A stretch of DNA of 60,192 nucleotides, filler included, from Sluysia triapertura (taxonomy: Eukaryota): NCBI GenBank assembly GCA_046118255.1. It is 5 parts of 5 records of this genome, joined end to end, with 100 filler letters (N's around TTAATTAATTAA, not from the genome) between each part and the next. Parts side by side here need not be neighbours in the genome. Positions count along the whole stretch, not along the records: positions 1 to 13,839 come from JBJNIA010017414.1; 4 more parts are not named here. One strand, given 5' to 3'. Below are positions 1-25,676 of this stretch, piece after piece (position 1 is the first letter of the stretch; the number at the start of each line of letters is the position of its first letter). The notes below the pieces were generated by a model. That model did not search any database, was not told the DNA's origin, and worked only from the letters and a program-made list of their open reading frames with translations. The translations under genes and the position numbers were made by a program.

Positions 1-10
1 TGAAACATAA

Positions 11-46
11 AGTCGGGTCATTTGACCCGCTATGGTAGAAATAGGT
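11..46. mobile_element. Probable piggyBac-type DNA transposon terminal inverted repeat (right end)
   Basis: Palindromic CGGGTCATTTGACCCG followed by CTATGGTAGAAATAGG resembles piggyBac/Looper-type TIRs; the canonical TTAA TSD is not intact. Confidence 0.35.
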
Positions 47-515
47 ATATATTAAGTCTTGGTATGATTAGTGTTAATAAAATACGTACATTAAATCAAT
101 TAAATTATCAAATCCAAGTGTTAAAAATCAATAATATATATTGTTGTTTGTATGTGTTACTAATAATAGATATAATAATAATATATGTCAATATGTACAA
201 TCAAATCATAATATTACATATAAAACAACAAATCACATAATCAACAATGTATATTCGGCAAATCAACAAATCATTACAATTCCCCTGACTAATAAAATTA
301 GTCTCTAATTTTCTAATGTTATTCAGTTGCTCAAAAATGAGTTATTACAATCAAAATACTGATTTTCCAATAAATCTTCGCCCAATGCACCAAATTCGCT
401 GTCGCTGACATCCAAGTCGACTGTGCTATATTTGCTATAGCTGGCATTTAGGTCGACGTTTGATGATCGTGGATGGATCTTTTATGCTAGCTTCTGTTGA
501 CCTAGTGTTGGTTTA

Positions 516-598
516 TGTTGACTTGGTTGTGCTAACATCTGTTGACTTGGTTGTGCTAACATCTGTTGACTTGGTTGTGCTAACATCTGTTGACTTGG
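516..598. repeat. 24-bp tandem repeat, about 3.5 copies
   Basis: TGTTGACTTGGTTGTGCTAACATC repeated; reads TTKSTDVS in one minus frame, just past the 580..963 ORF. Confidence 0.9.
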
Positions 599-963
599 TG
601 AAGCCTCTTTCGCTTCCGCTGTTCACTTCTTGTTGATATATCTTGATTTTTATGTATATTTTTATATCTGATTGGAGTTGCGAAATTGAATATATTACAT
701 GTGTTATCTGTGCAGCATTTGGTGTGTGTTAGATTATGTATAGAAGAAAAAGAAGAAGGAATAAGAGATTTTTTAATTGAGGGATCTTTTAATTCATTAT
801 TAATAATCTGTGGTAAGAATGTTGTATCCCTTTCACAAAGAATATCGAACAAAGAAACCAAGTCTTTTACCTGCTGCTCGCATGTAGAAGTACGCGGTGG
901 AAAAGGGTAAATAAGTGTTAGAACCAGCGACCTACTTACAAGATTTAAAGAACTAAATGGCAC
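580..963 (-). CDS. Hypothetical ORF, probably a decayed accessory gene 3' of the gypsy element
   Basis: 127-aa ORF with a basic KRKR patch, same strand as the element; no family recognised. Confidence 0.3.
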   Translation of the reverse strand: MPFSSLNLVSRSLVLTLIYPFPPRTSTCEQQVKDLVSLFDILCERDTTFLPQIINNELKDPSIKKSLIPSSFSSIHNLTHTKCCTDNTCNIFNFATPIRYKNIHKNQDISTRSEQRKRKRLHQVNRC

Positions 964-2068
964 TATATTAGTTCATGTGAGGTTGATTATACTCGCAACC
1001 AGCCTTACGGTATTGGAAAAGTTATTATAATTATATCAGGAAAAAATGTGACCAATATTTTATTATATAATGAAGCGGGCCAAAATTGCCTAATATCTGA
1101 AATATCCTTCGCATTCTTCAAATCCTGTTCACGCAACCATGGTCCACTGTTAAAAAATTCTTAATTCTATTCCTAGGACAAATCAATGAGTCCGAATGGA
1201 AAGACTTCTGATAGTAAGTAAAACAAGCCCATATAATTTGATGTTTATCATTAAAATCAAGAGCCAATTATGCCACCAAAAATACAAGATTGGTGTGTGT
1301 GTGTGTGAAGGTCGCACGTTCCTCACATTTATACAAATTATCTACGTCTGATTCATACAAAAGTGGATATTTGGTTGTATTTAGTGGAATCACTTGTACA
1401 AGATGTGTGATATACAAGAAGAGAAACTTTGAAGTCTTACTTGTAGAGGAATCTGATTTTGATATTTCCCTTAGCTGCCGTTATTATGACTTGTTTGTTA
1501 TCAGTAGGGAAACCGAATACTGAATTAACAATTAAAGGGGTTTTTATATGTCCGATGAAAAATAAGTGTGTGATGAAAGGTTCATCAATTTCACACTTCA
1601 AAATGTTTGGAATGTCATTGGATTTTGTAGACAAAAGACGTAACATTCCTACCACAGAAACGATCGATCCTGTTTTAAAACGCATGTGTATTGTTTATAA
1701 TTTTTGCTTGCGGGTGTCTTAATAAAAGAACACATTTAAAAGAAAAGACAAGATTTATAAATGGTAAATTAATCGTTAGTTTATTTTTTATATTATTTTC
1801 TATTTAATTATAATAACCTACGTATTTTAGGAATAATAAAAAATTAGATATGATTTTTCTTAAGAAATAGTTCCACTATCTTATTCTTTTTTTATAAACC
1901 TCCTTTTTATAGAGACATCTATTATGCTTCTGGGATTTTGATAACCCAGAAGGATAATTAGGATGTGGTATACTTATCAAATGTTCATTATTTTGCTGCT
2001 TAATTTATTATGGTTGTGTTATTACAATCTATTGAATTTCAATACTTTGGGATTTACTGGGATTTTTT

Positions 2069-2266
2069 CTAAAATATAAGAATGTCTAAAAAAACTTGAA
2101 TTTCTTCTACAGAAGTTCTGCACAATGAGCAGTTCATATATTCCGTAAATGAAAAATGAAAGAGATTAATTATACATTTGAAATGAAATTTATGCGAACA
2201 GGGGTATATTTTCGTATAGTGCTTATTATAGAACGTTGGAAAATGGAACATCGAGTGAAATACATT
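2069..2266 (-). pseudogene. Small RING-H2 finger protein (frameshifted)
   Basis: YPCSHKFHFKC...CSLCR matches CxHxxHxxC...CxxC; the first Cys pair appears degraded in an upstream frame (MYFTRCSIS). Confidence 0.7.
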
Positions 2267-2479
2267 GCTGAATTTTAAGAAAATAAAAATATAATAAGAT
2301 ACTAGTATTTTAAAATTAATTAAGTGGTTAGTTTAAATACTGCAGTTATGATCCTAATTATGTATATGGCTAAAATCTACGAAAAGTGATTAACAATAAT
2401 TTTTTAAATTTAGGTGACCGGTTGGACAGAAAACAACCGTCAACATCGATCACTCGTAATTTTTATATATAGTTCAATG

Positions 2480-3120
2480 TTACACTTTGATTATAAGTGT
2501 CAATTTTCGCAGTGTCCCTAAATATATTTTTATGGCGTCAGTCATAAGATTTACTGTAAGCAAAGCATAAAGATTGAACGTAACAATGCAAAGATAAATG
2601 TTGATTTCAAATGTTAATTTTTGGTCATTATTGTGTTTTGAAAATTTAAGGTTAAAGCCGATTTTAGTAAATTTATTTGGTATTTTAGTTGTTATTTCAA
2701 TGTATGGTCGTGCAAGTGACCAATTGTTTATACTTATTGTTTCGTTAGTAAAAATTATTCATATGTATATAGTTTGAAATGTTAACTTAGGTTGATAGCT
2801 TAATCTAATTGTTTGTTTATGTGGTATTAATTCAAGAATTGTTTCTCTCTAAGTCCCATATTTTATTACAATCGAATTATTTGATAGTAGATTGGTTATT
2901 TTAATTAGGTAAAGTTCATTGATTAATGCTGTTATAGACCAATTCATCCATTTTTTATTAAAACCATCAAAGAATAAATAAGGTTTGGTCTGTATCCAAT
3001 GATTCATTAATTCCATGGTTATTTTCACTTTGTATAATTGAGATTCAAATAAGTCTTCACAGGTTATGATCCAATACAGAAGTAGTACACCAATTATTTG
3101 AACATCTAATGGATAAACTA
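2480..3120 (-). pseudogene. About 210-codon frame with two in-frame stops; putative membrane or secreted glycoprotein
   Basis: Manual translation VYPLDVQIIGVLLLYWIITCE...INIYLCIVTFNLYALLTVNL...; hydrophobic ends and N-x-S/T sequons; missed by the ORF track. Confidence 0.45.
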
Positions 3121-3151
3121 ATTAATTTCTTATTTATTTCCTTAGCAATGA

Positions 3152-3830
3152 CTAATATCTCGTCTGTTTTAGCTTGGATAAATAATTGTATATCTTTATA
3201 GAACATTTTCTTAGCTTATTCGTTGTTATTTTAAGTGAATATGTAGTGGTTAAGCAAATGCATAGTAATATTGATGACATTTGTATTCCACTGTAATGTG
3301 TCGGTAATCTTAAATCCTTATTGTATTCATATAATGGTGATGGAATTATTGGTGGTAATGGTGGTCCTGAATGAGCAGAAAATCCATTAATTCTTGGAAT
3401 GGAATAATGATAATCATCGTCGTTATTGGAATAGGAATTGGTAGGAGTGCATTTATTCATAATAAATATCAAAATCATCAGTAAGGTTATGATTAATGCA
3501 ATAATAAACAGTGTTGCAGCAATTATTAAAATAGTTATCGAAGGATCTCTTTTTAATGTATATACAATCGTAGATTCCTTATTTCCTTGTATTGCAAAAT
3601 GGAGTTGTTTAATAATTTTAGCTTGATTTTTTATAAATTTTGCTGTCTTCAGAAAGTAAATATTCCTTACAAATTGTTACAGGATATTCTGTATTAGGTA
3701 TAACATGTTTATGTATTTCCCATATACTAAAATTAAGTCTTGCTGGATTAATACAGATACAATGCTCTTTAATGTTAATTTTCGTCATTTTTATTTGTAT
3801 TTCCGTATCAAAATTGTAGAAGTCAAATAT
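3152..3830 (-). pseudogene. Single-pass membrane protein with Tyr/Pro-rich cytoplasmic tail
   Basis: TM ILIIAATLFIIALIITLLMILIFIM followed by DDDYHYSIP...GPPLPPIIPSPLYEY; Cys-containing upstream part in a shifted frame. Confidence 0.5.
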
Positions 3831-3877
3831 TTTGATCTATAAACTCGTTGATGCCTCTTTAATTGAAATCAGTGTTA

Positions 3878-4482
3878 TTAAAGTAAGTAACAACATGTTT
3901 TGCGGCATATTATTAACTCTAATAAATAATTAATAGCATATATTGTAGTAAATATTAAAAGTGCTATTATAAAAGCATGTTGTATGTCCAATTTATTTAT
4001 CCTTAGATTATCTAATTTATTATTGCTCAATTTAGTAGTAATATTGGTTATTTTATTTATTACAGTTGTTGATGGTATGGTCGTTGTTTTATTTATTGAG
4101 ATATATTGTTTATTATTATTAAATATATCCATTAAATTTATAGCTATTGATTTATTATAAAATGAAAATTTTATTGTATATAATAATAATAAATTGAATG
4201 TTCACATTTAAATATATTATCTATGATTGAAGGTTTCTTTATTGATAATGGTTTAAAATATATACAATATATATCTAAATTATAATTAGGAACTTCATTT
4301 CTATTATCAATTTCAAGTGTCCAAAATCGATTAAAAGTATTTGATAAGAACGTGTCTTGTTTAGTATCAGTATATTCTGTTAAATTTGATGGATAAGATG
4401 TTGCCATTGTTATAAATTGAATAAGTAATAATATACAAGTTATGTAAAGAAATTTATTACTTTGGATTCCTCTTATAAGCAT
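3878..4482 (-). pseudogene. Type I membrane glycoprotein split over two ORFs
   Basis: Signal-peptide-like FLYITCILLLIQFITMA (4171..4482); Thr/Asn-rich stalk, TM AFIIALLIFTTIYAINYLL and Cys-rich tail CRKTCC (3878..4132). Confidence 0.5.
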
Positions 4483-4690
4483 TATACTACTTCTGTGACT
4501 ACTATCATTATCATGTTTCTACTCCAGATGAAGTTGAAAATATTGTAGAATCCCACTAATCAAGATTTTTCCAATTTGGAGTTGGCCTTTGTGAATTTAA
4601 CGGAGAAATTTGATAGTTTTGCTGTGCTGGTAATGGTGGCATTGTTCTTTTTAATGGTGGTAATACTATTGGTGACAAAACTATATGTGC

Positions 4691-4985
4691 TCATAATGGT
4701 ATCTTAAGAAATCCTAATCTACCATGAACTACAAAGTTTTCCAGTTTACTTGATGCCTCCATTCCTATTATAACTTCATAAAGGCATCTGTCCCATGTCA
4801 ATATTGTTACAAATAAGTCTACATCTAAATTTGTTAACTGACATTGTATGATTTCAATGTATGAATTCAATATTTGAACCATTTATAATAATCGTATACC
4901 AGCTTGTTGTAACAGTAATGTATTATAATTAATAATAGTATTATTTGATCCAGTGTCTATAACAGATATTACCGTTGATTAAATT
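4691..4985 (-). pseudogene. Retropepsin-like aspartic protease located downstream of integrase
   Basis: VISVIDTGSNNTII (catalytic DTG at about 4950-4958), then after a frameshift YEVIIGME (ILG-type motif). Confidence 0.7.
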
Positions 4986-5129
4986 TAATACTTTGCACTA
5001 AATGATTTTGTTAACATATTTGTTATATTTACTGGTTTAATATTTGTCGTTCTTAGTGGTTTATCTGTTACTAATTTAAATGATGTGCTTATTGATTTAG
5101 GTGGTTTATCTCTATCTTTAATTCTTGGT

Positions 5130-6300
5130 TTTACCTTTAAAACACTTCTTAACTTTTATATCTCTTAAATTATATTCATTATTTGGTGTTACCTTACAAA
5201 GATTCGCATGTACAACAAAAGTTTCAGCATCCATATCATTTGGTTTTCTAATATATAAATTAGTAGAAGTCGTTTTCATTACTTCATTTGGTCCTTTAAA
5301 TGGTTTATGTAATTTTTGAGATTATCCTGGTTTTGCTAATGGATAATCTACTAAAACCTTATCTCCTATTTTGAATTTATCGTGATTCGCCATTTTGTCT
5401 TATGTCTTTATAAGTTTCCTGAGTATAACGTATTTGCAATCAGGCACGCTTCCATGCATCATAGTGGTGACATTCTGGGTTTCTAAATATTGAGATGACG
5501 GTGGAATCCAATCTAGATTCAGTGGCATATTTGAATGTCTTCCATACATTAAAATGGCGTAAAATTCGTAGCAGTATGTACTGAACTTATATGTGCAAAT
5601 AAGCATGGTGCTATATATAAATCCCAATCTTTTTGCTTTTCGTTTACATACGACTGAAGTGAATTTATTAATGTTCTATTATATCTTTCCCCTAATCCAT
5701 CTGTTTGTGGATGGTATGGAGATGTGCATATCTTTGTAACTGATTTTATCGCGACGCTTGTAAAATTAGTTCGTTGATCAGTTAATAGCTTTCTTGGAGT
5801 TCCGTATCTATATATTATTTTCTACTAAAATTTGCGCCACTGTTTCTGCTTTCTGATTTGCTATTGGATAAGTTACTGTCCATTTTGTTAAATAATCAGC
5901 AAATACTATTATATATCTATTTCCATCTATAGTTTCTGGTAGTGGTCCCATAATATCCATAATATTCCATTGGTGAAAGTGGTATAGGCATATGTTGTAG
6001 TGGTACTTTTGTTTTAGTTCCTGTATTTTTTCTACAACCTATAGCACAATCTTTACACCACTTGTTAATATCTTTTTTCATGTCCCAATAATATTTATTT
6101 TTAATTTATGATAACGCCTTTCTTGTTGATAGGTGTTTTCCCAATTGACCATCATGATATTGAATGAATAATGGGATTATTAAAGATTTTGGTACAATCG
6201 TTTTCCACTCATCCTTTGAATCTCTAAACGCAAAATACCATCTGTTATTAAAAACGTTTTAGCTTTATCCTCATTTAACAATCCTTTTGCTATTTCTTCA
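5130..6300 (-). pseudogene. pol: Ty3/gypsy integrase, degenerate
   Basis: HHCC region (YHDGQLGKH...WCKDC), MDIMGPLPETIDGNRYIIVFADYLTKW, LLTDQ, SPYHPQTDG, FKIGDKVLV...KGP (GPY/F-like). Confidence 0.92.
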
Positions 6301-6342
6301 AATGCATGACATTTTTTCATCTTCTCTCTGATGTTTTACTAT

Positions 6343-7155
6343 TTATTTTAATTCTTCTAGTTTTCCTGAAATTACCATTATTTGTATAAGATTCCCCTTT
6401 TCATCTGTATTTGTTAATATATTATTTATATATATTATTTGCAAATCAAATTCCGCTAGCTTTGTGAACCATCTGTTTAATCTACTTACTTCATCCCTAT
6501 TATTATACAGATATGTTAACGGTTTGTGATCAGTATACAGAAACACTTTTTGTCCTAATATATAGTGTCTGAATAGTTTACATGCATATACTATTGCTAA
6601 ACATTCTTTTTCAATTGTTGAATAATTTATGTCGGTTTTATTTAATCTTCTGCTTGCATATGCTATTACTCTTTCTAGATTTTCTTTATTTCTTTATTCT
6701 AGAATTGCTCATATCGAACATTACCAGCACCCGTTTTATTATAAACGGTTATTCTCATCTGGGAACATTAATATTGGTGCAGTTGTTAATTTTTTCGTTA
6801 ATTTTATAAAAGCTTTTGTTTGTTCTTCGGTGCATTTAAATACTACATTTTTCTGAGTTAACATTCTTAAAGGTCGAGCAAAATCTTTTAAAATCTTCTA
6901 TAATAGCTTGCCAATTTTAAGAAGCTTTGAAATTTCTTTACACTATCTGGCGGTGGAAACTTTACGACTTTCTATATTTTTAGGATTCGGTTTTATACCT
7001 TTATGTGAAACTATATCACCTAAAAATTCCGCTTGTTCTTCTGCCCATACACATTTAGTAGGTTTAATTTTCAATCTAGCTACTTCTAACCTTTAGAATG
7101 TTTTATCACTATCTACTGCATGAGTATCAAAATCTTCTGAAAATATTACTATGTT
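6343..7155 (-). pseudogene. pol: Ty3/gypsy RT C-terminus and RNase H, degenerate; protease and RT N-terminus deleted in this copy
   Basis: IVIFSEDFDTH, LKIKPTKC, EFLG, LTTAPILMFPD, EKECLAIV, YTDHKPL, RLNRW. Confidence 0.92.
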
Positions 7156-7351
7156 CCTTACTTAAAATTGCTAATATCCATTTTGAACGCTTAATTTAAA
7201 TTCATTTATTCATTTAAATTTTCATTTAATTTTTTAGCATTCGTTATACCATTTGCCATATCTAATAAAAATTACACAACTTTTTGATCAGTTTCTCTAA
7301 TTGTTGTTTCTGGGGTATTTATTCTTTCATTAGCTGATATTATTATTATTA

Positions 7352-7398
<47 letters not shown>

Positions 7399-7939
7399 GA
7401 TTCCATCTCTTCCATTTCCATTTCTTCTTTGGCACTGTAGTACGCGTCTTCTTCATCGATATCCATTTCTTCTGCTTGTAATTATTCATTAATATTTTCT
7501 TTATTATTAACATTTTCTATATCTGTTTCGACTTCTTAATCATCACTTAATTCGTTATTCGTTTCGGAGTTATTTGATTAATTTTCTTCGGCATTTATTT
7601 CTTTCTCAGTATTACTGGGTTCAGTATTTTGTTCTACTTCTGTTTTATCATTATTTTCTTTTGATTCTGAATCTATTTTTTGTCGATTCTCTTATTTGGT
7701 TCCATTTTATTTCCCATGTATCAATTATTTCTTGAATTCTTTTTTATCTTCATTTGTAATTACTTCCTTTATCTGCTTTATCTGTTCGATTTTTTCTTCC
7801 ATTGATTGATTTAGTATTTCTCGGATTCTACCTAGAATTGATTGAATTGTTAATCTATTTTCCTCTTTTTCTCGTTCTCTTCGTTGTTTGTTTGTGGAAT
7901 TTATACTTGTTTATACTTAAATCTATTTTTATCGCAATC

Positions 7940-8499
7940 TAATCCAGTAATATAAAAAATTCTCTAAGTATTGCATTCTTTTCCTTGTCAGTAATTAACT
8001 TAAGATATTTATCATCTTCATCGCTGCTGATTTTTCTTCTTGGTTCTCTTTTCTTATTTCTCTTCTCTTCATACTGATATTCGTCTTCACCCTCATATTC
8101 ATTCCTGTTATTTCTATAATTATCATCTCTTTGATTTCTATATTTACAATTTATTTGTCCCTTATTACTTTTATTATTATCATCATTAAACCTTACTTTC
8201 CAATTAGGGCATTGGTATCTTTGTTGTTGTTGAACCCTTACTCTAGTAAAGTCTTGAGTAAACACATTTTTGCCTTAATTTTCTACAATCTCTTGCGTAA
8301 TGTCCTTTTTTGTTACAGTTGTCACAAATTATTTCTCCATCTATATTAGTTTGAGTCTTATTATTGTTCTCGAATCTCATCGGACTTTTATTTCTGTTCT
8401 TATTAAAATTAAAAGTAGGTGGCCATCTCGGTGCTGGTCTTTGCTCATAATTAGATATACCATAATTACTTGCTCTGTTATTTTGAAATTCTCTGCTTA

Positions 8500-8551
<52 letters not shown>

Positions 8552-9261
8552 TCCTCTATAATTATTTGAATTCCCCCTATAACTATTTTAAATGCCTCTG
8601 TAATTATTGCTTCGATTACTATATCCATCATAAGAGTTATTTCGGTTATAATTTGAAGAATTATTATTGTATCATAATTTGAGGAATTATACATATATCT
8701 AATATAATTATCAAAATTATCTTTATTTCTTTTGAATTTTGTCATTATTATCACTTAAATAAGTAATAAGTAATATTATCTCTATCATCAGTATAAGACC
8801 TTTCTTTCCATTAATGTAACGTATGTCCTTAATTCCGGACTTTTACGAGCGCATGCGAATTCATATACAGTTTCATTTGGTTTTTGTTTTCTTACATTTA
8901 ATTTCTTTGTATAATATTTTGTCATGTCATCGAGGGCTATCTCCTCGGTAAAAGCATTTACAAATGCATTCCAAGATTGTTTATCATTATTACTTGTTTC
9001 CTTATAAGTTTGAAATGTTACTCCAGTTAAGTAGTTTTGTATTCTCTGAATTTTTTCAATTTCGTTCCAGCCGTTTGTTTCGGCAATACTTTCATATTCA
9101 AAAAGAAAATCACAGAGGTCTTTCTCTGCTTCGTTAAATTTTCTCATTTCTGGTAAAGTTAATATGGGACGTATGCCTTTTGCTAATTGAGCCATATATT
9201 CTCTGAAATCATTAAGTAATGCCATATAATTTCTTAATTTTGCTCTATAATCGTCGTACAA
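7940..9261 (-). pseudogene. gag: Ty3/gypsy gag with CCHC zinc knuckle
   Basis: FEYESIAETNGWNEIEK...RKQKPNETVYEF retrotransposon gag motif; CDNCNKKGHYARDC knuckle at about 8285-8326. Confidence 0.88.
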
Positions 9262-9576
9262 TACAATTTGCTTATCTATTTTTTACTTAAAACTTAAAGT
9301 ATAATTTACTTAGGGTACAATAATTTACTGAAATATAACTTATTCTTAAACTTAATATTAGGGTCAATGAAATTATGATAATGTTTTACTTTTAATTAAT
9401 TAATTAATTTTATAATAATTCTTAATTATTCTTATTAACTATCTCATAATTTTTTATATGCTAATTCTCACATTCTTAAGTGCTTAAAACTCTTATTTGA
9501 AATTTATTAATTATTGTATGCTTCTCATCACTATTTATATTATCTATATTAATCTTATATATTCTTCTGATGCTGG

Positions 9577-9594
9577 TCCTCACTCTGGGCACTA
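9577..9594 (-). promoter_or_regulatory. Primer-binding site, elongator tRNA-Met-like
   Basis: Minus strand TAGTGCCCAGAGTGAGGA resembles TGGTGCCCCGTGTGAGGA (complement of the elongator tRNA-Met 3' end); lies upstream of gag. Confidence 0.6.
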
Positions 9595-9875
9595 ATTTAT
9601 TTTATTTTTGCTCACGAATAAAGATGTGGATGTGTGTTAGTTAACCAACGTATCCAGACTTATCACTTAATAATTTAAATGTATCTAAATTGCGTTGATT
9701 CTTTAAAATAAATCAATTATTAATTCGACAATATATATTACAAAACAAATGGTATTTTTACAAATAATGATATTAACTAAAAAGATAACAATACTTTACA
9801 AATAATGATAGTGACGTTGCAGTATTAACTTTAAAGTTAATATAAAAATGATTTTAAATTATATATTGTGTAACA
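9595..9875 (-). mobile_element. Candidate 5' LTR of the gypsy element
   Basis: Abuts the PBS; TGTTAC start on minus at 9875; no second copy seen in the window. Confidence 0.3.
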
Positions 9876-10560
9876 ACCTTGAAAATGGTTACGAAATTAT
9901 GTATAAAATAATTTGCGTATATTTTACATAATACCTAATAAAGGTATAAAAACTTAGTATAATCAAACTAACGATTCCGTTTGAGAAAATTATTCAAATA
10001 AAAAAACTGATCTTAATCGATTGAATGGATGTTAGGTTGTGAGTTTTAACTTTTTATTTTGTATTAGGTATTTAGTGTATTAGGTATTTATATTATTTTT
10101 ACCATTAACCTTGAATTATTTGCTTTAATGATTAATTTAAACAAAAATAATTAATAATGTTACTATTTTAACAAAACATTTAATCATTACAATTAACATT
10201 TTGACTTGCGAATACGTAAAAGTACTTATAAATCAATTATAGATTGACAAACTTGAGAAATAGATAATTCAAATAATATTACAACACAGGGAAGGTTGAA
10301 CTTTGGTTACACATTAATGGTAAATCAATTAATTATTGAAATCACTTTTTTTTCATTTTCACATTCGACAAAACCAATAGAATTCAAAATAAAAGATAGT
10401 AATTGTATAAAATTAGTCGAAAATAGCTTATCGTGTATAACAATGAACAAAATTACTAAAGAAATATTGACATAATGGTTCAGACAGCATGCATCTTAAA
10501 TAAAACTCATCATAATGGAACAAACTGAGAGAATGCCTTCTTTTTTGTTTCTTCTAGTTA

Positions 10561-11257
10561 CACTAGAACACGTTCAATGTTCCGGTTTTGGAAGTGTGTT
10601 GTTCCAGTTTCAAAAAGAAGTTAGTTAGTTAAAATAAAAGATTTGCAAAATCAAACAAGTATATTTTGTTAACTGTATGTACATAATTCCACATATTTAT
10701 TGAAAATTATATAATAAATACATTTCACACAAAGAAACATTCTCTAAACTGAATAACAGTGATCTTATACGCTTTTAATTATTGACTGCTTAACTAAATT
10801 TTATTAATATTTAATTTTGCAGGTGGTTGGTGTTATAACTAAATAAAATCTTTATTCATCTATTGTACTGGCTTATTTCAGTTCATCAGTGCAATATATC
10901 TTATGTTTCTGTTTTCTTTTATTCATCTAATATGATATTATTGTCAGTGTCTTTATCTAATTTTTCTAAAATTTCTCGTTTCACATTTAGTGTTAAATTG
11001 ATTTTATTTCGTTTTGAATTTGATGCCCCATTACGTGAGTATTCAAAGTATTAAGTTAGGTACTAAAATACTGTGTCAAACAAAATCTGCAAAGTAAAAT
11101 AAATAAACACAATAATGAATAAAATGGTGGTCAATAATATTTAAACAAAACACAATTATTTATTCTTCTAAAATTATAATAAAAATAATATTACAAGCAT
11201 GTTCCAGTTTTAGAAGTTATTCTGGTTTCAGTACGTCCAGTTTTTGGACTTCTAGCG
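10561..11257 (-). mobile_element. Non-autonomous pogo/Tigger (Tc1-mariner) element
   Basis: TA|CACTAGAA...TTCTAGCG|TA ends, subterminal TTCCAGTTT repeats, internal minus remnant KRNKINLTLNVKREILEKLDK (CENP-B/psq-type HTH). Confidence 0.65.
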
Positions 11258-12819
11258 TATTAATTTTAATATCTGATTATGTGGTTTTAAACGATTATCA
11301 ATTTTAAAATTAATTGTGATTTTAAATAGTATTTGTTTTGATTTTGACAAATTGACGAAATATTTTTCATTTGTACTGATTGAGATATATTTTTTCTCAA
11401 TATTTTATTTACTGACAATAATGAGTATTTAATCTTTTTTAAAAATAGTAATCACCGTAAATACATAATCAAGTTTCCGATGCAATTGTGCCATTTCTTT
11501 TTTATATTATAAATCTGAGCAAATCATATTCAAAATCAATGTTAAAATCAATAATGTATTTACATAAACTATAGAAACACAATTAAACCGAAATTAAAAA
11601 ATAACATTAGTCAAATTTAAAACGAATATTTTCATTATTTTATTTATTGATTTTTTCAGCTCGTGGCATTATGATATTCATTGGTTTAAGTGTGCTGGTT
11701 TTCATAGTCAGTTTGGTATCGTTTTATATATTAAATTGATTTTTTGTTTTATTATATTGTTCACGTCATTAAATTAATTTGAAAAATGACTTTGATTATA
11801 ACGGTTAATGGTTTGATTATTATTATCATTATTATTATGATTATTATTATCACTATTATTATTATTAATTATTATCACTATTATCATTATGATTATGATT
11901 ATCATTATAAAGCAATAATTTTGTCGTATTTTAAACATTATTTCAACTTTTTCATTAATTGCTTATTTTAAAAAGAAGAGGGCATACAGAAATTCCATCA
12001 TATCCATTTCTTGAATAATAAACTACTGAATAACCTTGATTATTATATTGGTTAGAAATTATACGAAAAGTAAGTTCAATTGAAATCAAAACTAAATAGT
12101 TTCTTAATTATATAGATGTATTGTACACATTTTGATAATATGCATTCTACTAAATTATAAACACTTTGAGGTTTTATTTTTTTCTGCTTTTCTGTTGTCG
12201 GATAGATCCATAATTTTCAAAATATTCAAAATCTTGATTGATTGATGATGCTGCCACATTGCGGAAAATTTAAAAGCGTCTGTCTCATTTTCATTACATT
12301 AGTTTTCTATTATTTCTGATTTTTAGAAGTTTGTATCACATTTTCGCACTTTTCTCGAAATTCAAATATTGCTCGTTCTATTTTCAAATTATTTCCATTA
12401 ACTTTTATTTGTAATGTTTGGTTATACAGTTACCACAGTAAACAAATGAAGATTTTAGTGGATGCATTAGTAATAGAACTACAAAACATTTAATTGTGGT
12501 GAATCCACTTCTAATTCTGCCAAGATAAATGTTAATTGGTTTAAAGCTGTAATTGGATGAATTTGATTGAACCAAGTCCATGGGTTATTTCGGTAGATAT
12601 ATAATATTTAAAACATTAATATTAAATTCTAAAATGCCTCCAAATGGTAGAATAAAATGTATATTGTATATAATACTGAGTTAGTGAATGTTAATGTTAT
12701 TGGTGGAGATATCGATGTTGTAATTTTCGTTTTGTTAATAGAGAAATTATGTAAAATATATTAATTAAATATCAATATTATTTTCAATTAATTAATCATA
12801 ATTTGTAAATGATTTTGGG

Positions 12820-12952
12820 AATAATAATATATATTGAATTGCTCTACGATTTACTCTAAAATAAGTACTCAAAAGCGCTTAAAATGAATCATTCATCGTA
12901 TAGCTGACATAGAAAGAACTTTGCCTTTTTCTTATATATTTCATAATCTTAC
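12820..12952 (+). repeat. Dispersed repeat, second copy at about 16945-17072
   Basis: AAGTACTCAAAAGCGCTTAAAAT...GAAAGAACTTTGCCTTTTTCTTA..TATTTCATAATCTT shared. Confidence 0.85.
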
Positions 12953-13458
12953 AATATATCTTATTTGTATAAGTTATAAGATATGAAGAAAAAACTTCTG
13001 AAAATATAAAAGTACATTTATTAATTTAATTAAGAATTGTTTTAATTTAATAATTTTTTGTGCGTGAGAAAATAGCATATGAACTGAAGAGTAATTTTGA
13101 AATATTACGAAATTATTTTAATTAATTTTCTGTAATATGAAGCTAAATTTATATATCTTGTAATGTTCAAGCATAATAAACGTATATTTTAAATTAATCA
13201 TCACTAATGTACCGAATCAGGCAGGTTATTGAAATGCACGTACGGATAACGCATGACGTATAGTATCGAACACCATTGTGGAAAATAAGTTGTATTTAAT
13301 TGATTTTATGTTTAATTCTATTACCGAATTTATTTTTAAATTTATTATTCTTTTATACCTTTTACATTTCCTATTAAATTATTATTATCAATATTATTAT
13401 TATTAAACTTTTTATGAATACAAATGAATTTTTTAAGAAAAAATGAATAATCTAAAAC

Positions 13459-13530
13459 TGTTAGACTTCAATAAATAGACTGACCGGGAATCTAGCGCAG
13501 GACCTCTCGCTTCAGTTCGATGCTCAGTCA
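13459..13530 (-). mobile_element. Degenerate 3' half of the tRNA-containing TG...CA element
   Basis: Reverse complement GAGCATCGAACTGAAGCGAGAGGTCC...CCCGGTCAGTCTATTTATTGAAGTCTAACA. Confidence 0.7.
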
Positions 13531-13839
13531 ATTATATGTTGAGTAGTCTTTTAAAATATTATTTAAATTAAATAGATATTAATTTAATTAACTACCAAAA
13601 TAAGTCAATTGTTTATGTACTCCCTATCTGATAATAATTATTATTCTTCCTAAAATTAAATGTTTTATAAAGAAAACCAGATTAAAATCAAAAACAAAAT
13701 AATTTACTAATTAAACAAATATCAATTACAGATTCATATTATTACAAATTTCTATCAGATTTTACTAAAAATGATTAAATCGATTATAAATTAATATTAA
13801 CACAAATTAATGATTAAAACAATTACAACTTAACGTTAT

Positions 13840-14049: not shown

Positions 14050-17000
14050 TATATAGATAACTCATTCTTTTATTGCTAAACCGAAAAGACAAATTTTAAA
14101 TTCTCAGAATTGATTGCACTTCCATCTATTACATCCGAGATGAGTAAATTTAAATACTTAGTTAAGACTTAGTAATGAATGATTTGAAAATAATTTTACT
14201 CAATAAAATTAACGATAATTTATTTATTTTATGTAAAAATAATAGTTATAATAATAATAATGATAATAATAATAATAGTAATAATAATATTAACAATAAC
14301 AATATTTGTCATGATATCCTTAGTAACCAATTAAATATAATTTGTGTTTAGTTTTCATATTCTTTTTGTTTCCCAATAATCATCGTTTCCCGTAGATCTA
14401 TTAAGAATAATTGCGGTTTGAATTTTTGATGATTTTATTGTTATTTTATGTGAATGGATAAATAAAACTAATAAAAGAACGTTATTAAGTACGATTATAT
14501 CAACATTAATAATCATTAATTCATTTATATGTGAATCTAAATTTATTCTATTATTTGTAGCTGTTTTTTTTGTATTATCACATGTGAAAATAAAATTTAT
14601 TTAGTCTAAAACAAATTTAAGTTTAATCGATCCAGAATAATATAAGTTGATATTTTCAATATGTTTTACTTACAACATTTATCCTTATTAAGGTATAAAA
14701 CTCTAATTTTAATAACAAGTTTCAAATGCAAAGCGTCTCTTTAGTCAAATTAAATTGAAAAACTCTTATTAATCTTAAATTCGACTTAAAATTCAAAATT
14801 TTTCTTTATCTACATCACAATAAATAAATAACAAGTATTTTCGACCTAATAATTAACAATTAACGATTACGGATCATATAATTATGTGATGACAGTCGAA
14901 TGAACAGAGCACTAAAAAGAATTTTTTCAAAAAACAATTAAAAATAGATTTTTAATACTTTGCTAATGAAAATTTATATTAGTTTGGTTTACAGATACCA
15001 TATTGTAAAACTCAAAACCATTTAAGCTTAAAAAAGATAATACAAACAATTAAACAATTAAAACTCTGTTTTAAAATAATTTGGGCAGGCAGTCTGCAAA
15101 CAAAAAACAAATTCTATTCAATAAAATTATTATCTTTTTTTATCCAAAAAATTATACATATCTTTCATTGCCTTATTCAGCTTGGATATAACATGTACAA
15201 TAATCTTTGTGCTGCAAAATTTTTAAGTATGCCCTTTATCCAATCATTCATGAATTGTATAATCAAACATTTTCAGACAAATTATTTGAATCTCCTTCGA
15301 GAAATAGACTAACGATTAACGATCAACAATTATATTTTTCTAATTTACTCGATCTACCTTCACATTAGTATTGTCAACATACATACAAATAATGAATTTA
15401 CAGACCTTTATTTAGTATTGGATAAAACAAAACAAATAATAATGATAAAATTTTAATGAGATCAACCATAAGTCAGAGAAAATAATTAATAATGATTAAT
15501 TTTTAATGTGATAGATGATATAAATAAAAAGACAACTAATATTGATTTAATAATTAACCCTATGTCATTCAGCGAGTAAATCTTATACACATCGGTTGAA
15601 CTCCAATATCAAAAAAAATTACAGTTAAAATTTATAAGCTTGGAGAAGATTATTCTAAAATAAATTCTAACAATTGCGATACTGACTATGCTCTATCAGA
15701 AGTCACACGCAGAAGATTTTACAATGACAAATTATAAAAAAATTACATGTATCAGATATTAACAATTTGGTGAATTTGATATCCGGACCTGTCTCTGACA
15801 ATAAACCACAAAATTGATTATATTATTGAACAAATTCGTAAGTTTTTTATTTACTTTAGTAAGACAAAACGTCGTAAGGTTTCCATTATAAAACAAAAAC
15901 GTACATTACCTTTAGTTTTAGAATTCAATAGATTTTCCAGTTTTTTACCAAATTTTCGAAGGGTAAATGTTTGAGGCTCTCATTCCATAATATTTCAAAT
16001 TCATTTCTAGATTATCCTCTTTCACAGCAATTCATTATTTTCTTCATTATTCTAAGTCTGAAAAATCCAACATTTTACAATTGAGAATTAATTAAAATTT
16101 GACTTGGCTCAATATTAAGACTTTCCTTGCATGAACTTGGTCAAACAACATCTTTAAAACATATTCATAGTTAAACCTTTTACATAGTATTCCGCATTCA
16201 AACTTTATTCATAAAAACGTGCTTTAACACAAAAGGAAACCCAAGGTATTCTTCATCATTCTTATTCTAACAATGTTTTATTCAACACTTTGTATCAAAT
16301 CTTTCTGCATCATTCTTTACTCACCTTGGCAATCGCAACTTATTTTTCTGAAATGAAAACATTGGCAAGTAAATTAAATACGCAAAATAATTATTTTTCA
16401 TTAAAATTTGTGAAATCTTTTTCAAAAGATAAAAAATTTAAGCACACAAACTTTACAAATAAACAGTGAAAATATTATTCAAATTAATATTTATCGGAAT
16501 GTCGGTATAACTGAGAAAATAGTACAATATAACCAGTGCAATATAACCAGCTAATATTTGTCATTGTAAAAATTTCAATATCGATAAAGAATTTAGTCAA
16601 TCACTTCAAGTTTGAATTATTGATATATCTTACACTAAGTGCACTAATACTTATCGAATGTTATAATTTTATTTTCTATTTGATTTTGATTTATCATAAT
16701 TATTTATTTGGTAAATAATTTTATTATATTGATTTATAACTCACTCTGTAGTTATCTTTTCATAATCCTCGGAGATCAGCATTCCTTGTGGTAATTTATT
16801 ATAATAGTATCAATTTCATCAATTTACATTCAATATATAGACCACAACATGCAATTCTAATTGGAATTTAAATGTTTACAACATTGTACGAAATTTACTA
16901 CTAATTGGTGTTAAAAAACCAACAAACATTCAATTTACTACTAATAATAATTTATATTGCACTCATATCTACTGCAAAGTAAGTACTCAAAAGCGCTTAA

Positions 17001-17169
17001 AATAAATCATTCACTATAATATTTCTGAAACCGAAAGAACTTTGCCTTTTTCTTAAATATTTCATAATCTTCCAGTAATTTGTCATTCTCTGGTAACTGG
17101 TAACGGTATACAACCTATCACCTAGCTTATTATTACTGTATAGATTACTGTCTCAATGAAATATTCATC

Positions 17170-17375: not shown

Positions 17376-19516
17376 ATAAAAACATAAATATTAGATTTAT
17401 AATTAATCACGTAATTTTAAACATAATCATTAAGTATAATTTTATCTGGGACATAATTGTTTCTAATGATTAATATGTGCTATTTATTTTAAAATTTTAT
17501 AAATTGTCATATAATTTCTAAGATAAATATTTTCATATACAAACAAAGATAATATTGATAATCTAGTCATGCAATAACATTTTACCTATAAACTTTATTG
17601 TAGATAATAGCTTTCAAAATTTCGTTAACATAACTATAGTAACCAAATGTAAATATTGACAATTAAAGATGTTGGAAATAAATGGTTGATAATACAATGT
17701 ATTTCATTTTTTTTGTAGAAAAATGTTTAATATTTTGGTAAGTATGTGATTTATTTCATTTGGTAAATTCAATTGGTGACTTAATTTAATACATAATAAT
17801 TATACAATGTTAAAATGAGTTCTTTAGATGTTTAAAATTTTGTTATCATTAGAAAAGTATGGATTTGAAAATTAAACTTAATGCGTATGGTGTGCTTCTT
17901 GAATAAGATATTTAAATCAAGTAGGAAACATTTAAATTTTAACATTTAAAATATGTAAAAATTAGTCTAATAAAAATTAGTCTAATAAAAATTATTTATA
18001 GTTGCTTAAAGTAATATTCAAATTCGAGAAATTGTCTTAAAAATTGACGAAACGATGCAAGACTTATTTAAGCAAATAATATAAATAGTAGTTTTAATAA
18101 AATTCACACTAAATGAATTTAAATTTACGTGTTTAAGCAATAAAACAATAAAAAATAAATAAAAAAATAAGATATTGAAATAAATGTGTGATGTTATTGT
18201 TGAAATGTAAAAAGTTTAAAAAACTGTTATTGAAATGCTATGTTATTATATATCAAAATTGAAATTGTTGAATTATTACATGTATTTGTGTTTTAAAATT
18301 TATTTTAACTTTTCTTTCGTTCCTCATAAAATTAATGAACTGGTTGATGCAATGCAAATTTAATGTCGTAATTTAAGGTGTTTTAGAAATAAATTGATAA
18401 TTTTTGAGTAATATAATTATGGATATGATATTTGTGTTCAAATGTATTTGGTAAGATGACCAAGATATGTTAGAAAATGGAGGCCAAAAGAGAATGTTTC
18501 TATGAAAGAGTTGCCTATGTATTTTCTGGTATATAAAATAAAGTATGTATTTAAAATAAGCTTCAGTGCATTGTCTTTAATGTAAGTTATGAAAATTGTC
18601 ATACAGTTTCAGAATACAATCTTTAGACATAATTTCGTTACTTAGCAGCTTTATTTGGTAACAAAAAGAAATAAAGTTCGTATTAAAATAATTGTGCTAA
18701 TGTTATATGATTCTATTTTTGAAATGCATTACTTTATTATTTTATTTACTATTAAAAGCTGAGTTATCAAAATATAAAAATAAAACTTTGTTGAGCCTTT
18801 GTGCTTAATAATAATATCGATTACTCTATTTAACAAAACATCAATAATTAAAACTAAATTCAATATAAAATTATCACAAATTTCCTTATTTCGATAAGGT
18901 TATTTATTCAACCCAAAAATTAAGTGTTTTAAAATAAAATAAACGATAATTCAATAATTTAATGATTATAAAAAATCAAATGCAATTTAGTGTTATAAGT
19001 CTTTACTAACAACAATAAAATAACTAAAACGGCAAAATTAGTAATAACATATGTAGTATCAAGAATATGACAGTCTATAAAAAACCAAGAGCGACGCTAC
19101 AAAGACTGAAAAATATCAATATCCAGAAAGTTAAAAATATTATTGATGGATAAATTTAAAATTTTAACAACAAACTGTAAAGTGAGTCTCCCACCAAATA
19201 ATATTAAAATACCTTAAAAATAAAAATAAATTTAATATTTTAAAATAAAATAGCAAAGGGAGTCTCCTACTAAATGATATTAAAATTATCTTTCCTCTTA
19301 TTTTAATTTTAAAATAATAAAATAATAAAATCAAAAATAAACAAGAACATTACCCTAAGCATGGATCTTCACTGAATAATTGCATAATTGTATCATTGTT
19401 GTTATTGTGTTGTAAAAATTTAGAAATTTTTATTTTATAATCTCATCATCCAATCAATTCTCAGTCCCATAACCAAATATTCTCTCGCATAAATCATCCT
19501 AACCTCTTTGAGAATT

Positions 19517-19577
19517 GTAGGGAAATCACACAAAATTCATCACACTTCATCGCATAAAAACATTGCACATATACTCA
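19517..19577. repeat. Dispersed repeat, inverted copy at about 24852-24915
   Basis: TGTAGGGAA..ATCAC..AAAATTCATCACA.TTCATCGCATAAAAACA shared; LTR-end-like. Confidence 0.7.
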
Positions 19578-19929: not shown

Positions 19930-20492
19930 TGTACGATCTGAAAGGGAAGATCTTTAACACATCCATTAGTAACAAATCTGTTGAAGATTAAATGGAAAAC
20001 TTTTGGTAATATTGTTTACTATTCGAATTTAACGATTTACACTTTATTCGCTATATCGATTTGCGAATACATGTATCAAGCCCATCCACCACACTACTAC
20101 AAATTTAAAATAGCCAATACTTGGTCAGATGATAATCCAACGTGTGATCAAGTTATGAAGCATAATCCGAATGAAAAATTGAATTTAACTGCCGATGTTT
20201 TAAATATTTTGTCATTATTTTATCATCTATCGGAATATTGAAGAAGTGTGCTCATATGATCACCAAACGTAAACATTATTTAAATATCGAAAATGGGATG
20301 GAATGGTTTTTATATATTCTATCCTTTGTCATTGTATTTGATATGACGTCTTACCAACGTAGTTTAGGAATTAGAGAAGCCTGGCAATGGCAAAGTGGCT
20401 TAGTTGCATCATTTATTTGTATTGTTAATTTAGTCTTACTTATTCGCAAAGTGCATTTTTCGGAATATTTGTTGTTATGCTTCCTGATATCA
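19930..20492 (+). pseudogene. TRPA1: TRPA-family channel transmembrane region, frameshifted fragment
   Basis: REDL*THPLVTNLLKIKWKTFG, HYLNIENGMEW, WQWQSG...NLVLLIRK; frameshifts at about 20215-20240 and 20455. Confidence 0.75.
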
Positions 20493-20494
20493 TG

Positions 20495-21010
20495 AATGGT
20501 AATGGATCACATTTAAATTTAATCCACAAGATTTATCTATTAATGATCGTATAACATGTACTGTTCAGAATCGTGCATTGTATTGTAGATACCTGTCACA
20601 GTCAATATTATTATCTACAAGTATCCCGGACAACCAGTTATAACAAACAAACAACCACAGATTTTCAGAAGACGTTTTTTAACTTCAACTAGCGTAATTT
20701 CTCCTAAAGGATTTCCTTTGCCAGAAGTACATTGGTTTAAATAGTCGATTTCAAAAGTCCTTACGGCCATGAAGGAGATTTAGATCTACGGGAAGAAATA
20801 AAAATTGAAACAATCAAATCAGAACCTATAGCAGAATCCATACGAGACGATGAAATCAGTTATCTTATTGTAAAAATTCGAATCAGTAAATATTATCATG
20901 CTGCAGAATTAGTGTGCGCACATTAACACATTCTCACCATTGACCAAAAAAGTGATTCAATCAGAATTAAAATTGAATATCCACCATCTCGCCTTTACAT
21001 ATCGTCTACA
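20495..21010 (+). pseudogene. Nephrin/Kirre-like Ig-domain fragment, degenerate
   Basis: RITCTVQNRAL, YPGQPVI, KGFPLPEVHWFK, AELVCAH, IKIEYPP Ig-domain motifs across frames. Confidence 0.55.
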
Positions 21011-22900: not shown

Positions 22901-24738
22901 CTGAATTGGACTGCAATGTAAACAAAAATAGATTTAAAAGCAAAGAAGAAGAGTGTGCATGGAAATTTTAAAATGGGTTTTGTTTGTCCAATTGAATTTG
23001 TAAAAAATAGAAAAAAATTCTAAAATTTATATCTGTTAGCGTCCAGAACCTTAGTTTTTCCTCGTTTACTCACTTTTAATTCAAACTTGGTTGCGGTTAA
23101 CGATCTCATATGGACTCTTAAATGGTATAAATTCTTCAGTACTCACAGAATCAAAATTTAACATGTTACACCTGACGCTTTTCAACAAAAAATTGTATAA
23201 CTGACTCAGCTTTTTGGTTGTTTGTTGGAAAATCCTCGGACCATTTAGTTTGATAATCTGAGACTACCAATACACGTAATAGGTAGCACATCAATATTAT
23301 CTGTGACTGCAATTTCTGCAAAACTTGTATAGACTGTAAGAAAACTGTAGTTTTTATTACCTTTTTCTTATGAGATGAACAAATTTGATATAATTTATAA
23401 CTTCCTTTATCAATATTTCATTCATTCTTATGTTTTCTTTGCTGAACATAAGGAATTTTCTTACCTTAAGAAATATAATAATGTACTTATGCTTTATGTT
23501 TATCCCTATCAACGATAGCATTAAAAAATACATTAAAGAGTTAATTTCCAAAAAAATAGTTTTCGAAAAAAGAAAATAAAGTTTACTAAAACAGAAACCG
23601 AAAATTATAGAACGTTCTAAAAGTTTCCTCAATTATGATTGGCTGATGGCTGGTATAAATATTGGCATCGGTACAATTATGAACACAATAATAATATTTA
23701 ATGTTTTAAAAAAATTTTCTTTTTAAGTTACAAATTTAGTGACTTTATTTAAGAAGTTTTCAAAATTAATACTTTTGAAGATTTTGGATAATCATTACAT
23801 TTCAGAAAATTTTTCACTAATTATTAATATATTTTCTAATGACGGTTATAATTCTAGAATTTTAAAATGCAAGCAAAATATTTTATAATTGAATTTTATA
23901 GCCCAAATTTAATGGGGACAATTTCATTTTTGAAATCAAGAAAATTAAAAATTAAAGACCTTCAAAGATCTTTGCTTTTATTTTTTGTTGTAATTATTTA
24001 AAGGTTCTAAAATTGTATCATAAATTTTAAAATAGTTGTAAATAAAAATAAAAAAATTATTAATCAAGGAAATATCAAATTATTTTATAAATAAAACTTA
24101 GGCCCTCTATTAAGTAATTGCAAAAACAAGTAAAAGTTGCTACAAGAATTCAGCTTCACAAGTTAAGAAAGAGAATACGATATTAAGATTAAAATTCACG
24201 TTAATTAGCATTTTAGTTACAGATACGCCCACTCTAAGTCATAAATCAGAGCACTGTATTCACCTTGAAGGTTAAGTACGATAAAATATTTGGAAATATC
24301 TAATACGAGATAAGAGATATTCATCTTGATTTAATTTTCGAAAATCAATACAAAATCTCATCAATCTGTCATTTTTATTAACCAATAAATATGCAGTCTA
24401 TATGTTCTTACGATTTAAGTTTAACTGGATTCGGGTGTGATGTATTTAATAAGAGTTGATTCAGCAATATCATATCTCACGCTAATACTCTAGGATATTT
24501 TTTTCTTGTTCAGTAATATTGTTATTATCGATTTTAACTTCAATGAATGCTTTTGATTCTGTTTCTCATTTCAATAAAAATTTACAAATATTCTTCGTAA
24601 ACATTCTTTATGTTTCCTTAATTTTATTGCATCGTGGTGGCAATTGCAAATGCGCAAATAAATGCATCTTCTTTCATATTATTCATGATATGAAAATAGC
24701 ACATCTTTCACAAATTAATGTCTCTTCTCCAAAATACG

Positions 24739-24838: not shown

Positions 24839-25065
24839 TGTTTAATAGTTCGTGTATATGTGGAGTGTTTTTATGCGATGAATTGTGATGAATTTTATGT
24901 GATGAATTCCCTACAAAAGTAATTCACAATCACTCAATAATTAAAAAAGTTAGTTTTAAAGTTGCAATTACTCTGAATACATTGGAATTCCTACTGATTA
25001 ACAAGTAACTTATGATAAATATTGAAATTTACTGTCTACAACTTTTGATTTTAAATAAAAATTAA

Positions 25066-25672
25066 CACTATGAAAAGTGCTGGAGTAATACAACCAAGTT
25101 TTTCTCCATTTTCGTCACCAGTATTACTAGTAAAAAAAGAACGACGACACGATGCGATTATATATAGATTTCAGAGAATTGAATAAGATAACACGAAAGG
25201 ATGTATTCCCACTACCGCGAATAGACGAGATGTTAGACAAATTAGGGAACGCTACGCATTTTACAACCTTAGACTTACAAAGCGGATAATGGCACATTGA
25301 AATAGCAGAAAAAGATAAACACAAAACAGCTTTTACGTGCGGAAGCGAACTATACGAATGCGAAAAGATGACCTTTGGTCTAACTGGCGTACCGGCAACG
25401 TTCCAACGTTATATGAATTTTGTACTATCAGGATGTAAGAATGTCATTGTATACATAGATGACATTACAATATTTTCAAAGGATTTTAAGACAATATTTT
25501 AAAATGATTAGAAGTTGCAAGACTTAAGATAAAGCCTACAAAATTTGTATGGGCAGAAGAAAAGTCGAATTTTTAGGACACATAGTATCTAAGGATGGTA
25601 TTAAAATTAATCCAAGAAACATCGATAAAGTAGTCAAAGTTCCACAACCAGATAACGTTAAAAAGATTAAAA
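25066..25672 (+). pseudogene. pol: Ty3/gypsy reverse transcriptase fragment, same family as 50.6-51.3 kb
   Basis: MKSAGVIQPSFSPFSSPVLLVKK, DFRELNK, FPLPRIDEMLDKLG, FTTLDLQSG, FGLTGVPATFQR, VYIDDI, VEFLGHIV. Confidence 0.93.
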
Positions 25673-25676
25673 ATAT

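Follow-up and report, generated by a model that had tools for sequence, protein, structure and literature searches.

Complex retroviruses and the foamy-like endogenous retroviruses (ERVs) of fish carry compact accessory genes between pol or env and the 3' long terminal repeat (LTR). Both groups are treated, with their 3' accessory genes, in parts of PMC6431247. Host-directed accessory genes are a mark of complex viruses, and among animal gypsy elements the main precedent for them is Burro. Burro elements have an env gene between gag and pol together with ankyrin repeats (PMC6431247), and RING-type and apoptosis domains have been described in them (PMC6431247 and passages of PMC13465017). According to the latter passages Burro1 combines RING and BIR domains, and work cited there is said to have found that the RING and BIR region protects stem cells. 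Passages of PMC8532177, PMC11410931 and PMC13238120 deal with Burro as well. Here we describe a gypsy element in 60,192 nucleotides of DNA from Sluysia triapertura (GCA_046118255.1), a stretch referred to below as the window. The window has a G+C content of ~25% and consists of five stretches joined by N's, the first of which (1-13839) holds the element.

Beyond its integrase the element carries a cluster of minus-strand reading frames. With moderate confidence, we read this cluster as the decayed 3' region of a multi-copy gypsy element, which is likely to have encoded cell-surface proteins, one of them with a predicted fibronectin III (Fn3)-like fold, and a RING-H2 ligase acting on the host. 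The copy in the window is dead, a fossil. An initial annotation of the same DNA had listed three membrane proteins and a RING-H2 ligase as intronless open reading frames (ORFs) directly following pol. It had missed a second protease, the Fn3-like module and the remnant of a DEDDh exonuclease. The frames of the cluster are as follows.

3878..4482, minus strand: ORF A, with predicted signal peptide, ectodomain, Thr-rich stalk, transmembrane (TM) segment and short Cys-containing tail; frameshift near 4.18-4.20 kb
3281..3908, minus strand: ORF B, with predicted signal peptide, small ectodomain, strong TM segment and Pro/Tyr-rich cytoplasmic tail; stop at 3837-3839, frameshift near 3.67 kb
2480..3280, minus strand: ORF C, with predicted signal peptide, predicted Fn3-like two-Cys module (~3180-3000) and glycosylated second half; at least two frameshifts, two stops
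2069..2332, minus strand: small RING-H2 remnant (Pfam zf-RING_2) with probable ATG at 2265, ~65 codons; frameshift near 2.2 kb

On the minus strand, 80% of 2069-4518 lies in stop-free frames of at least 80 codons; the plus strand has none (0%). Such coverage was reached in none of 1000 dinucleotide-matched simulations (mean 2%, maximum 27%) and lies above that of each of 40 equally large sliding windows. The frames are co-oriented and tightly packed, as first described, and the first ATG of ORF B (3908) overlaps the stop of ORF A (3878-3880). None of them is unbroken: ORF A contains one frameshift, ORF B one stop and one frameshift, ORF C at least two frameshifts and two stops, and the RING frame one frameshift. 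Nor do they follow pol directly. ORF A starts ~640 bases past the end of the integrase frame; a protease-like frame (5155-4514) lies in between, and the frame of ORF A begins at 4518, where the protease frame ends (4514).

The membrane character proposed for the three larger frames holds for two of them and is weak for the third (hydrophobicity is given as Kyte-Doolittle (KD) values and protein nulls are shuffles throughout). ORF A has an N-terminal hydrophobic stretch (KD 1.96), N-glycosylation sequons and a TM segment of KD 2.17, followed by the short Cys-containing tail. The TM segment of ORF B reaches KD 3.17, and in this copy ORF B continues in frame into the signal-like stretch of ORF C. 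ORF C has sequons and a weak C-terminal hydrophobic stretch (KD 1.81). The RING-H2 remnant matches Pfam zf-RING_2 at E 1.4e-5 (25.7 bits, slightly below the cut-off of 27.3), and its best match among PDB sequences is the RING of RNF38 (E 0.004). Among the eight zinc ligands of this C3H2C3 type, ligands 3-8 share one frame; the first pair lies in another frame and is incomplete.

The backbone in which the cluster sits belongs to Ty3/gypsy (Metaviridae), since Pfam matches on the minus strand follow the order gag (CCHC), C-terminus of reverse transcriptase (RT), then RNase H, then integrase. From 5' to 3' it includes the following.

9575..9594, minus strand: stretch 5' of gag like a primer binding site, seen in the letters only (the window has no tRNA gene for comparison); we take it to resemble a tRNA 3' end
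8243..9282, minus strand: gag remnant containing a single CCHC knuckle (E 2.5e-5 for Pfam zf-CCHC and 0.076 for Retrotrans_gag; profile of the gag of relative L005 at 9165-8827, E 1e-5)
7250..8240, minus strand: acidic, Asn-rich, coiled-coil-like spacer, from its translation
6343..7236, minus strand: C-terminal end of RT and RNase H remnant (Pfam RT_RNaseH E 2.5e-28; RVT_1 positions 156-202 only)
5118..6333, minus strand: integrase remnant with H2C2, core and C-terminal part (Pfam Integrase_H2C2 E 9e-12; rve weak)

Pol is broken by 17 stops and three frame switches along the tblastn path, some of the stops lying in mis-phased stretches. The env, protease (PR) and RT N-terminus of related elements gave no tblastn match in 7250..8240, and this copy lacks the protease and the larger part of RT. 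There is no LTR pair within 1-13838. A comparison of 9250-10700 with 1-5200 gave a best local score of 88, where 15 other regions gave 62-139 and 15 shuffles 74-105; as originally stated, no 3' LTR is evident between pol and the cluster. The LTR placed at 9.6-9.9 kb is unverified. What is seen there is a fall in summed depth (the coverage by other contigs added up, which gives no copy number) from 8,222 to 202 at ~9.7 kb. Purine runs in 1-5300 are only 9-10 bases long, and the two 10-base runs at 1908-1884 are followed neither by TG nor by any match to the 5' region. A 3' LTR would sit nearer base 1 or before it. A TTAA at 73-76 stands beside a motif (window 1-76) that we assume to be like the ends of piggyBac-type transposons; this may be an insertion that truncated the 3' end of the element.

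Relatives came from an RNase H scan of metagenome contigs, whose best 80 of 236 matches (79 loci) together with three loci from viral contigs make up the 82 loci listed. The viral contigs yielded these three distant RNase H loci, and a search of them with the tail of L005 gave no match. Integrase matches were present in 40 of the 82 listed loci; the top five (L011, L012, L013, L004 and L005) reach 52-59% and the rest at most 41%. A sixth relative, P0002, has an integrase identity of 56%. In a quick RNase H tree, for which 80 of 85 rows had a sufficiently long match, the two copies in the window pair (SH-aLRT 91) inside a 17-row group (95) that lacks internal resolution and holds the six relatives and nine other loci. 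The six relatives are the nearest rows by path. They are giant gypsy elements that encode a single polyprotein.

Two relatives, L004 and L005, encode polyproteins of 3,426 and 3,703 residues in which a Monjiviricetes-type fusion glycoprotein (Pfam PF24664, E 5e-94 and 1e-83) precedes PR, RT, RNase H and integrase. The second copy in the window, a sister element at 50158-53831 (minus strand), is 81% identical to the focal copy over 464 bases and has the order env-PR-RT-RNase H. Its Monjiviricetes-type env fragments (53798-53125 and 52292-52101) are split by a 0.8-kb insertion and are 58% identical to the L004 env in the best segment; no gag was seen upstream of this env. Other related gypsy RT or integrase fragments lie at 25058-25719 (plus strand), 24302-24397 and 23178-23387 (both minus strand).

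Past the integrase, all six relatives encode an ectodomain of repeated two-Cys modules, a stalk, a TM segment and a tail of 46-94 residues. A signal-like hydrophobic stretch before the ectodomain exceeds KD 2.2 in three of the six and was recognized by eye in the others. A PPxY motif noticed by eye in the P0002 tail was not confirmed (one of eight tails has one), and an Atlas search with that tail gave no usable match. For 12 aligned modules of the relatives AlphaFold2 predicts a seven-strand sandwich (pLDDT 81). The Foldseek list consists mostly of Fn3 domains (best E 5.7e-4), with the Fn3 domain of receptor phosphatase eta at rank 2. VIA ranked fibronectin first (Z 9.5, root-mean-square deviation 2.6, 85 aligned), with many Ig-like sandwiches within about 2 Z units. 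Pfam Fn3_Dep-1 matched one of the 12 module members weakly (E 0.002), and the module profile found nothing below E 0.2 among PDB sequences. In its predicted structure the relatives' module is Fn3-like, a shared fold that reveals neither function nor donor.

ORF C was compared with a profile of nine such modules by reading through its broken frames, joined with X. It scores 17.7 bits, a value reached by none of 5000 shuffles and lying inside the 6-32 bits of true modules in leave-one-out tests. It also tops the 46,393 read-throughs made across the window (15.8 against 12.7) and has a pairwise z of 6.5 to the L012 module. With whole-tail and initial module profiles, single frames gave a best E of 0.059. 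Neither the profile of nine modules nor a second, noisier one matched any other of the 82 loci. ORF B reaches 5.2 bits with the module profile, equalled by 12 of 5000 shuffles. The sequence comparisons support ORF C as a match to the relatives' Fn3-like module; that of ORF B is weak and that of ORF A absent. ORF A does have the two-Cys spacing of the relatives, as do 399 of 20,000 shuffles; a likeness to the module noted by eye has no backing from profiles, and its single-sequence fold prediction is uninformative (pLDDT 40). An Atlas search with ORF B returned generic single-pass proteins only, below 0.9.

The frames might instead be captured fragments of host genes, passengers without function for the element. 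Fn3, RING-H2 and DEDDh are common among host domains, every frame of this copy is broken, and ORFs A and B and the RING are without counterpart in the related loci. The focal pol, however, is broken too, the frames of the cluster are compact and overlapping, and all six relatives have an open, in-frame Fn3-TM tail although their modules share only 13-38% identity, which argues for long selection. We hold such passengers to be improbable.

The predicted surface and RING-H2 genes are flanked on both sides by modules that are typical of the clade, with further remnants beyond the downstream one.

4514..5155, minus strand: post-integrase frame with a second retropepsin-like domain (~4975-4733), from the clade protease profile
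900..1694, minus strand: DEDDh (RNase T-like) exonuclease remnant, core ~1318-1050, outer limits approximate, from a profile of the relatives' downstream ORFs
260..972, minus strand: further co-oriented remnants, a Cys-rich frame (972-580) and a Thr/Ser-rich tandem repeat (516-599); summed depth 380-680

In a six-frame search the protease profile of the relatives matched 4975-4733 (E 0.0014), its sole match besides the canonical protease. At 16.3 bits this place ranks after the canonical protease of the sister element at 51.8 kb, and the next place scores 10.0; BLASTP between the two proteases gave E 0.34. A single match of the post-integrase frame to P0001, a Pro-rich repeat protein (E 6.6e-4), was dismissed as chance. 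Among the relatives, L012 and L013 have a Pfam-detected aspartic protease and ankyrin repeats after the integrase, ankyrin being found in these two only. Extra retropepsin-like domains also occur in L004 (polyprotein residues ~1200-1525) and L005, between env and the canonical protease. Judged by sequence, this clade repeatedly duplicates its protease, as extra copies in L004 and L005 and as post-integrase copies in L012 and L013.

Separate downstream ORFs for an RNase_T-type exonuclease are present in four of five loci (L011 ends early). Their profile matched 1318-1130 in the six-frame search (E 0.006). Read through with X at a break near 1135, the remnant reaches 25.8 bits and the runner-up place 11.2, with none of 3000 shuffles as high as the remnant, and its pairwise E is 0.003-0.005 to the ORFs of L004 and L005, which bear Pfam RNase_T. 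The first acidic motif is degenerate in the focal copy, which has no direct Pfam match here. In L012 (6861-9920) and L013 (7268-10371) there are two tandem exonuclease-like ORFs, the first apparently degenerate; their spacers contain direct repeats of 63-106 bases, perhaps expression signals. Because ORFs A to C and the RING lie between integrase and second protease on one side and the exonuclease on the other, they fill the slot of the relatives' membrane tail, internal to the element. The remnants at 260..972 likely belong to the element as well. The repeat at 516-599 is an exact 24-base unit in 3.5 copies that codes for Thr and Ser, a hydrophobic stretch lies nearer base 200, and no Pfam or PDB match was found; this part could be one more mucin-like membrane gene. 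A Ly6-like protein considered for 972-580 and the part upstream found no backing in Pfam or PDB, and what lies upstream turned out exonuclease-like.

The cluster is multi-copy. Evidence for other copies comes from short contigs, placed at 80% likeness, of a single run (X1) from which the window itself may stem. Summed depth, which is 12-19 for unique contigs, is 1,237-8,520 over 1849-4620, 16,837 over 4621-5082, 17,000-104,000 over pol, 170-680 over 1-1848 and ~200 past 9.7 kb. Contigs that differ from the focal copy number 22 at 2471 and 26 at 3766, and as the best of them at 3766 extends 128 letters from the contig end, the overlap of ORFs A and B is spanned. A link between the post-integrase region and ORF A in another copy comes from a single contig (depth 36, with 59 letters on its shorter side) that connects 4728 with 4382. 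A diverged single-copy contig covers 1418-1908.

The steps in depth between pol (17,000-104,000), second protease (16,837), cluster (1,200-8,500) and the part beyond (170-680) could also arise if another transposon, or a viral fragment of non-retroviral kind, had inserted 3' of pol and formed the cluster; two 10-base purine runs are present at 1908-1884. Such steps are, however, expected if many subfamilies share pol at 80% identity and differ in their 3' parts, and the purine runs have neither a following TG nor a match to the 5' region. One strand is used throughout, ORF C bears the module of the clade, the cluster has clade modules to either side in the order seen in the relatives, and in another copy a contig connects the protease region with ORF A. 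A nested insertion appears highly improbable, and we are confident that the cluster belongs to the gypsy element. The large complex gypsy element of the initial annotation is borne out in that the cluster is repeated, bridged to the post-integrase region and bracketed by clade-typical modules; it is not single-copy, and no LTR was found between it and pol.

Several results weigh against reading the cluster as a gypsy 3' region for surface proteins and a RING-H2 ligase, beyond the lack of an LTR match and the single source and additive nature of the depth data. No listed piece covers the whole stretch, and the bridged links are those between pol tail and ORF A and between ORFs A and B only. The Fn3-like fold was predicted for the relatives' module, not for the focal copy. 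The match of ORF C depends on the chosen position of the frameshift and leads by only 3 bits window-wide, and a second, noisier module profile gives it 7.8 bits. ORF A gave nothing with the module profile (2925 of 5000 shuffles as good). ORFs A, B and C show no detectable paralogy, and neither A nor B is significantly linked with the module or with the other of the two. Candidates from the protein collection included no homolog of ORF B (0 of 81) or ORF C (0 of 233). A RING-H2 motif was found in none of five related loci, which are partial contigs. The second protease has no Pfam match and a frame length not above chance (96 of 500), and the post-integrase frame had no useful match among 1.84 billion representatives. 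Env was not found in the focal copy, which lacks an internal stretch.

The membrane proteins would enter the endoplasmic reticulum via their own signal sequences. Since ORF A opens at the end of the protease frame and ORF B runs into ORF C, the membrane domain that closed the polyprotein may have been ORF A itself, and B and C may have formed one precursor. Signal peptidase would then probably have cut ORF A off the end of pol's polyprotein, as the layout of the relatives suggests, and the message for B and C would probably have been spliced or re-initiated. Alternatively, all may have been separate genes on spliced or re-initiated messages. Viruses offer precedents for surface decoys and attachment proteins, for RING-directed degradation and for exonuclease action. 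Displayed on the producing cell or on budding particles, the surface proteins could serve as attachment proteins or as decoys that resemble receptors. By recruiting an E2, the RING-H2 protein would bring about the degradation of host factors for restriction or death, and nucleic acids that set off silencing would be trimmed by the exonuclease. From domain types and viral precedent, the chances that host modulation was the role of the cluster seem to us evenly balanced.

Fn3 domains are common adhesion modules, and the membrane proteins may have served spread, by attachment or cell-to-cell transfer that assisted or replaced env, rather than host modulation. The focal copy is without env, the small TM ORF3s of the rotifer Vesta have possible env-like roles in passages of PMC5408684, and cell-to-cell transfer without env is described for Drosophila in part of PMC11952523. 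L004 and L005, however, keep a full fusion glycoprotein together with the Fn3-TM tail, and therefore the tail is not an env replacement there; the sister element in the window also has env. ORFs A, B and C match no fusion-protein Pfam family, and spread leaves the RING and the exonuclease unexplained. We consider a role in spread unlikely.

Elsewhere in the window, two frames of 234 and 243 codons, at 49371-50075 (plus strand) and 25677-26405 (minus strand; one stop), each follow closely downstream of an RT/RNase H remnant, in antisense orientation to it; they have no Pfam match of note and no mutual similarity in a self-search. An open frame of 367 codons at 37709-38812 (plus strand) carries, in the first half, an array of 30/60-base tandem repeats and has no Pfam match. 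Fragments of host-type genes were seen at 19942-20495 (plus strand; a frameshifted TRPA1-like channel with no evident introns, PDB E 0.012, perhaps a retrocopy or pseudogene) and at 48566-48886 (plus strand; a Ras/Rab-family GTPase, Pfam E 1e-12). With the low G+C content they indicate an AT-rich animal host, plausibly a flatworm. Other high-copy repeats lie at 12475-13838 and 10627-11088 (summed depth up to 63,500 and 2,950), 12820-12956 matches 16943-17077, and three short coding-like repeat fragments (31619-31904, 19441-19524 and 28847-29019) are mutually similar.

Compared with described systems, the element resembles planarian Burro/GYPSM1 in being a complex gypsy element with a predicted ubiquitin-type domain, and relatives L004 and L005 share its gag-env-pol order. 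Features of Burro itself are a mononegavirus-like env in frame between gag and pol, a polyprotein that includes BIR, BCL2-like, MATH and ankyrin domains, a planarian host and an internal region of up to 25 kb. Its RING is part of an IAP region, whereas the RING-H2 described here stands alone 3' of pol. BIR, BCL2-like, MATH, dUTPase and ankyrin domains had no match in the focal frames scanned, which belong to a decayed copy with an internal stretch missing. The account of Burro in section 7 of PMC6431247 mentions neither an Fn3 domain nor an exonuclease nor a protease after the integrase. The literature searched yielded no case of an Fn3 domain in a gypsy element, and figures or supplements of the primary Burro papers may already show such a domain. 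The element is set apart from Burro by these domains as described, and is a new variant among complex gypsy elements of the Burro type.

In Platyhelminthes, Bryozoa and Nematoda there are GAG-ENV-POL errantiviruses with a Class III (gB/mononegavirus-like) env before pol (parts of PMC13524379), as do L004, L005 and the sister element; this placement is seen in the relatives, not in the focal copy. Fibronectin, exonuclease, ankyrin, RING and Burro go unmentioned in the main text of PMC13524379. Vesta and Juno of bdelloid rotifers are similar in having a DEDDy exonuclease and TM ORFs of 210-230 amino acids downstream of pol (passages of PMC5408684). These families have one ORF3 each, and the same passages mention neither RING nor fibronectin, whereas four to five accessory frames are stacked in the element described here. 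To complex retroviruses and fish ERVs the likeness is in layout only, as the focal pol is Ty3/gypsy and not Retroviridae.

A further-reaching idea, which we regard as doubtful, is that these are undescribed infectious gypsy 'complex retroviruses' of invertebrates. They would display captured Fn3 receptor-like proteins, with a fold akin to CD45/CD148-type ectodomains, as decoys or attachment factors, and in this lineage the module would have split off and multiplied into a poxvirus-like host-interference cassette with RING-H2, second protease and exonuclease. An Fn3-like membrane module ending pol in six diverged elements, together with a lineage bearing RING-H2, would, if true, show action at the cell surface. 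The Fn3-TM tail, the second protease and the exonuclease would serve as markers for a clade overlooked by env-centred surveys.

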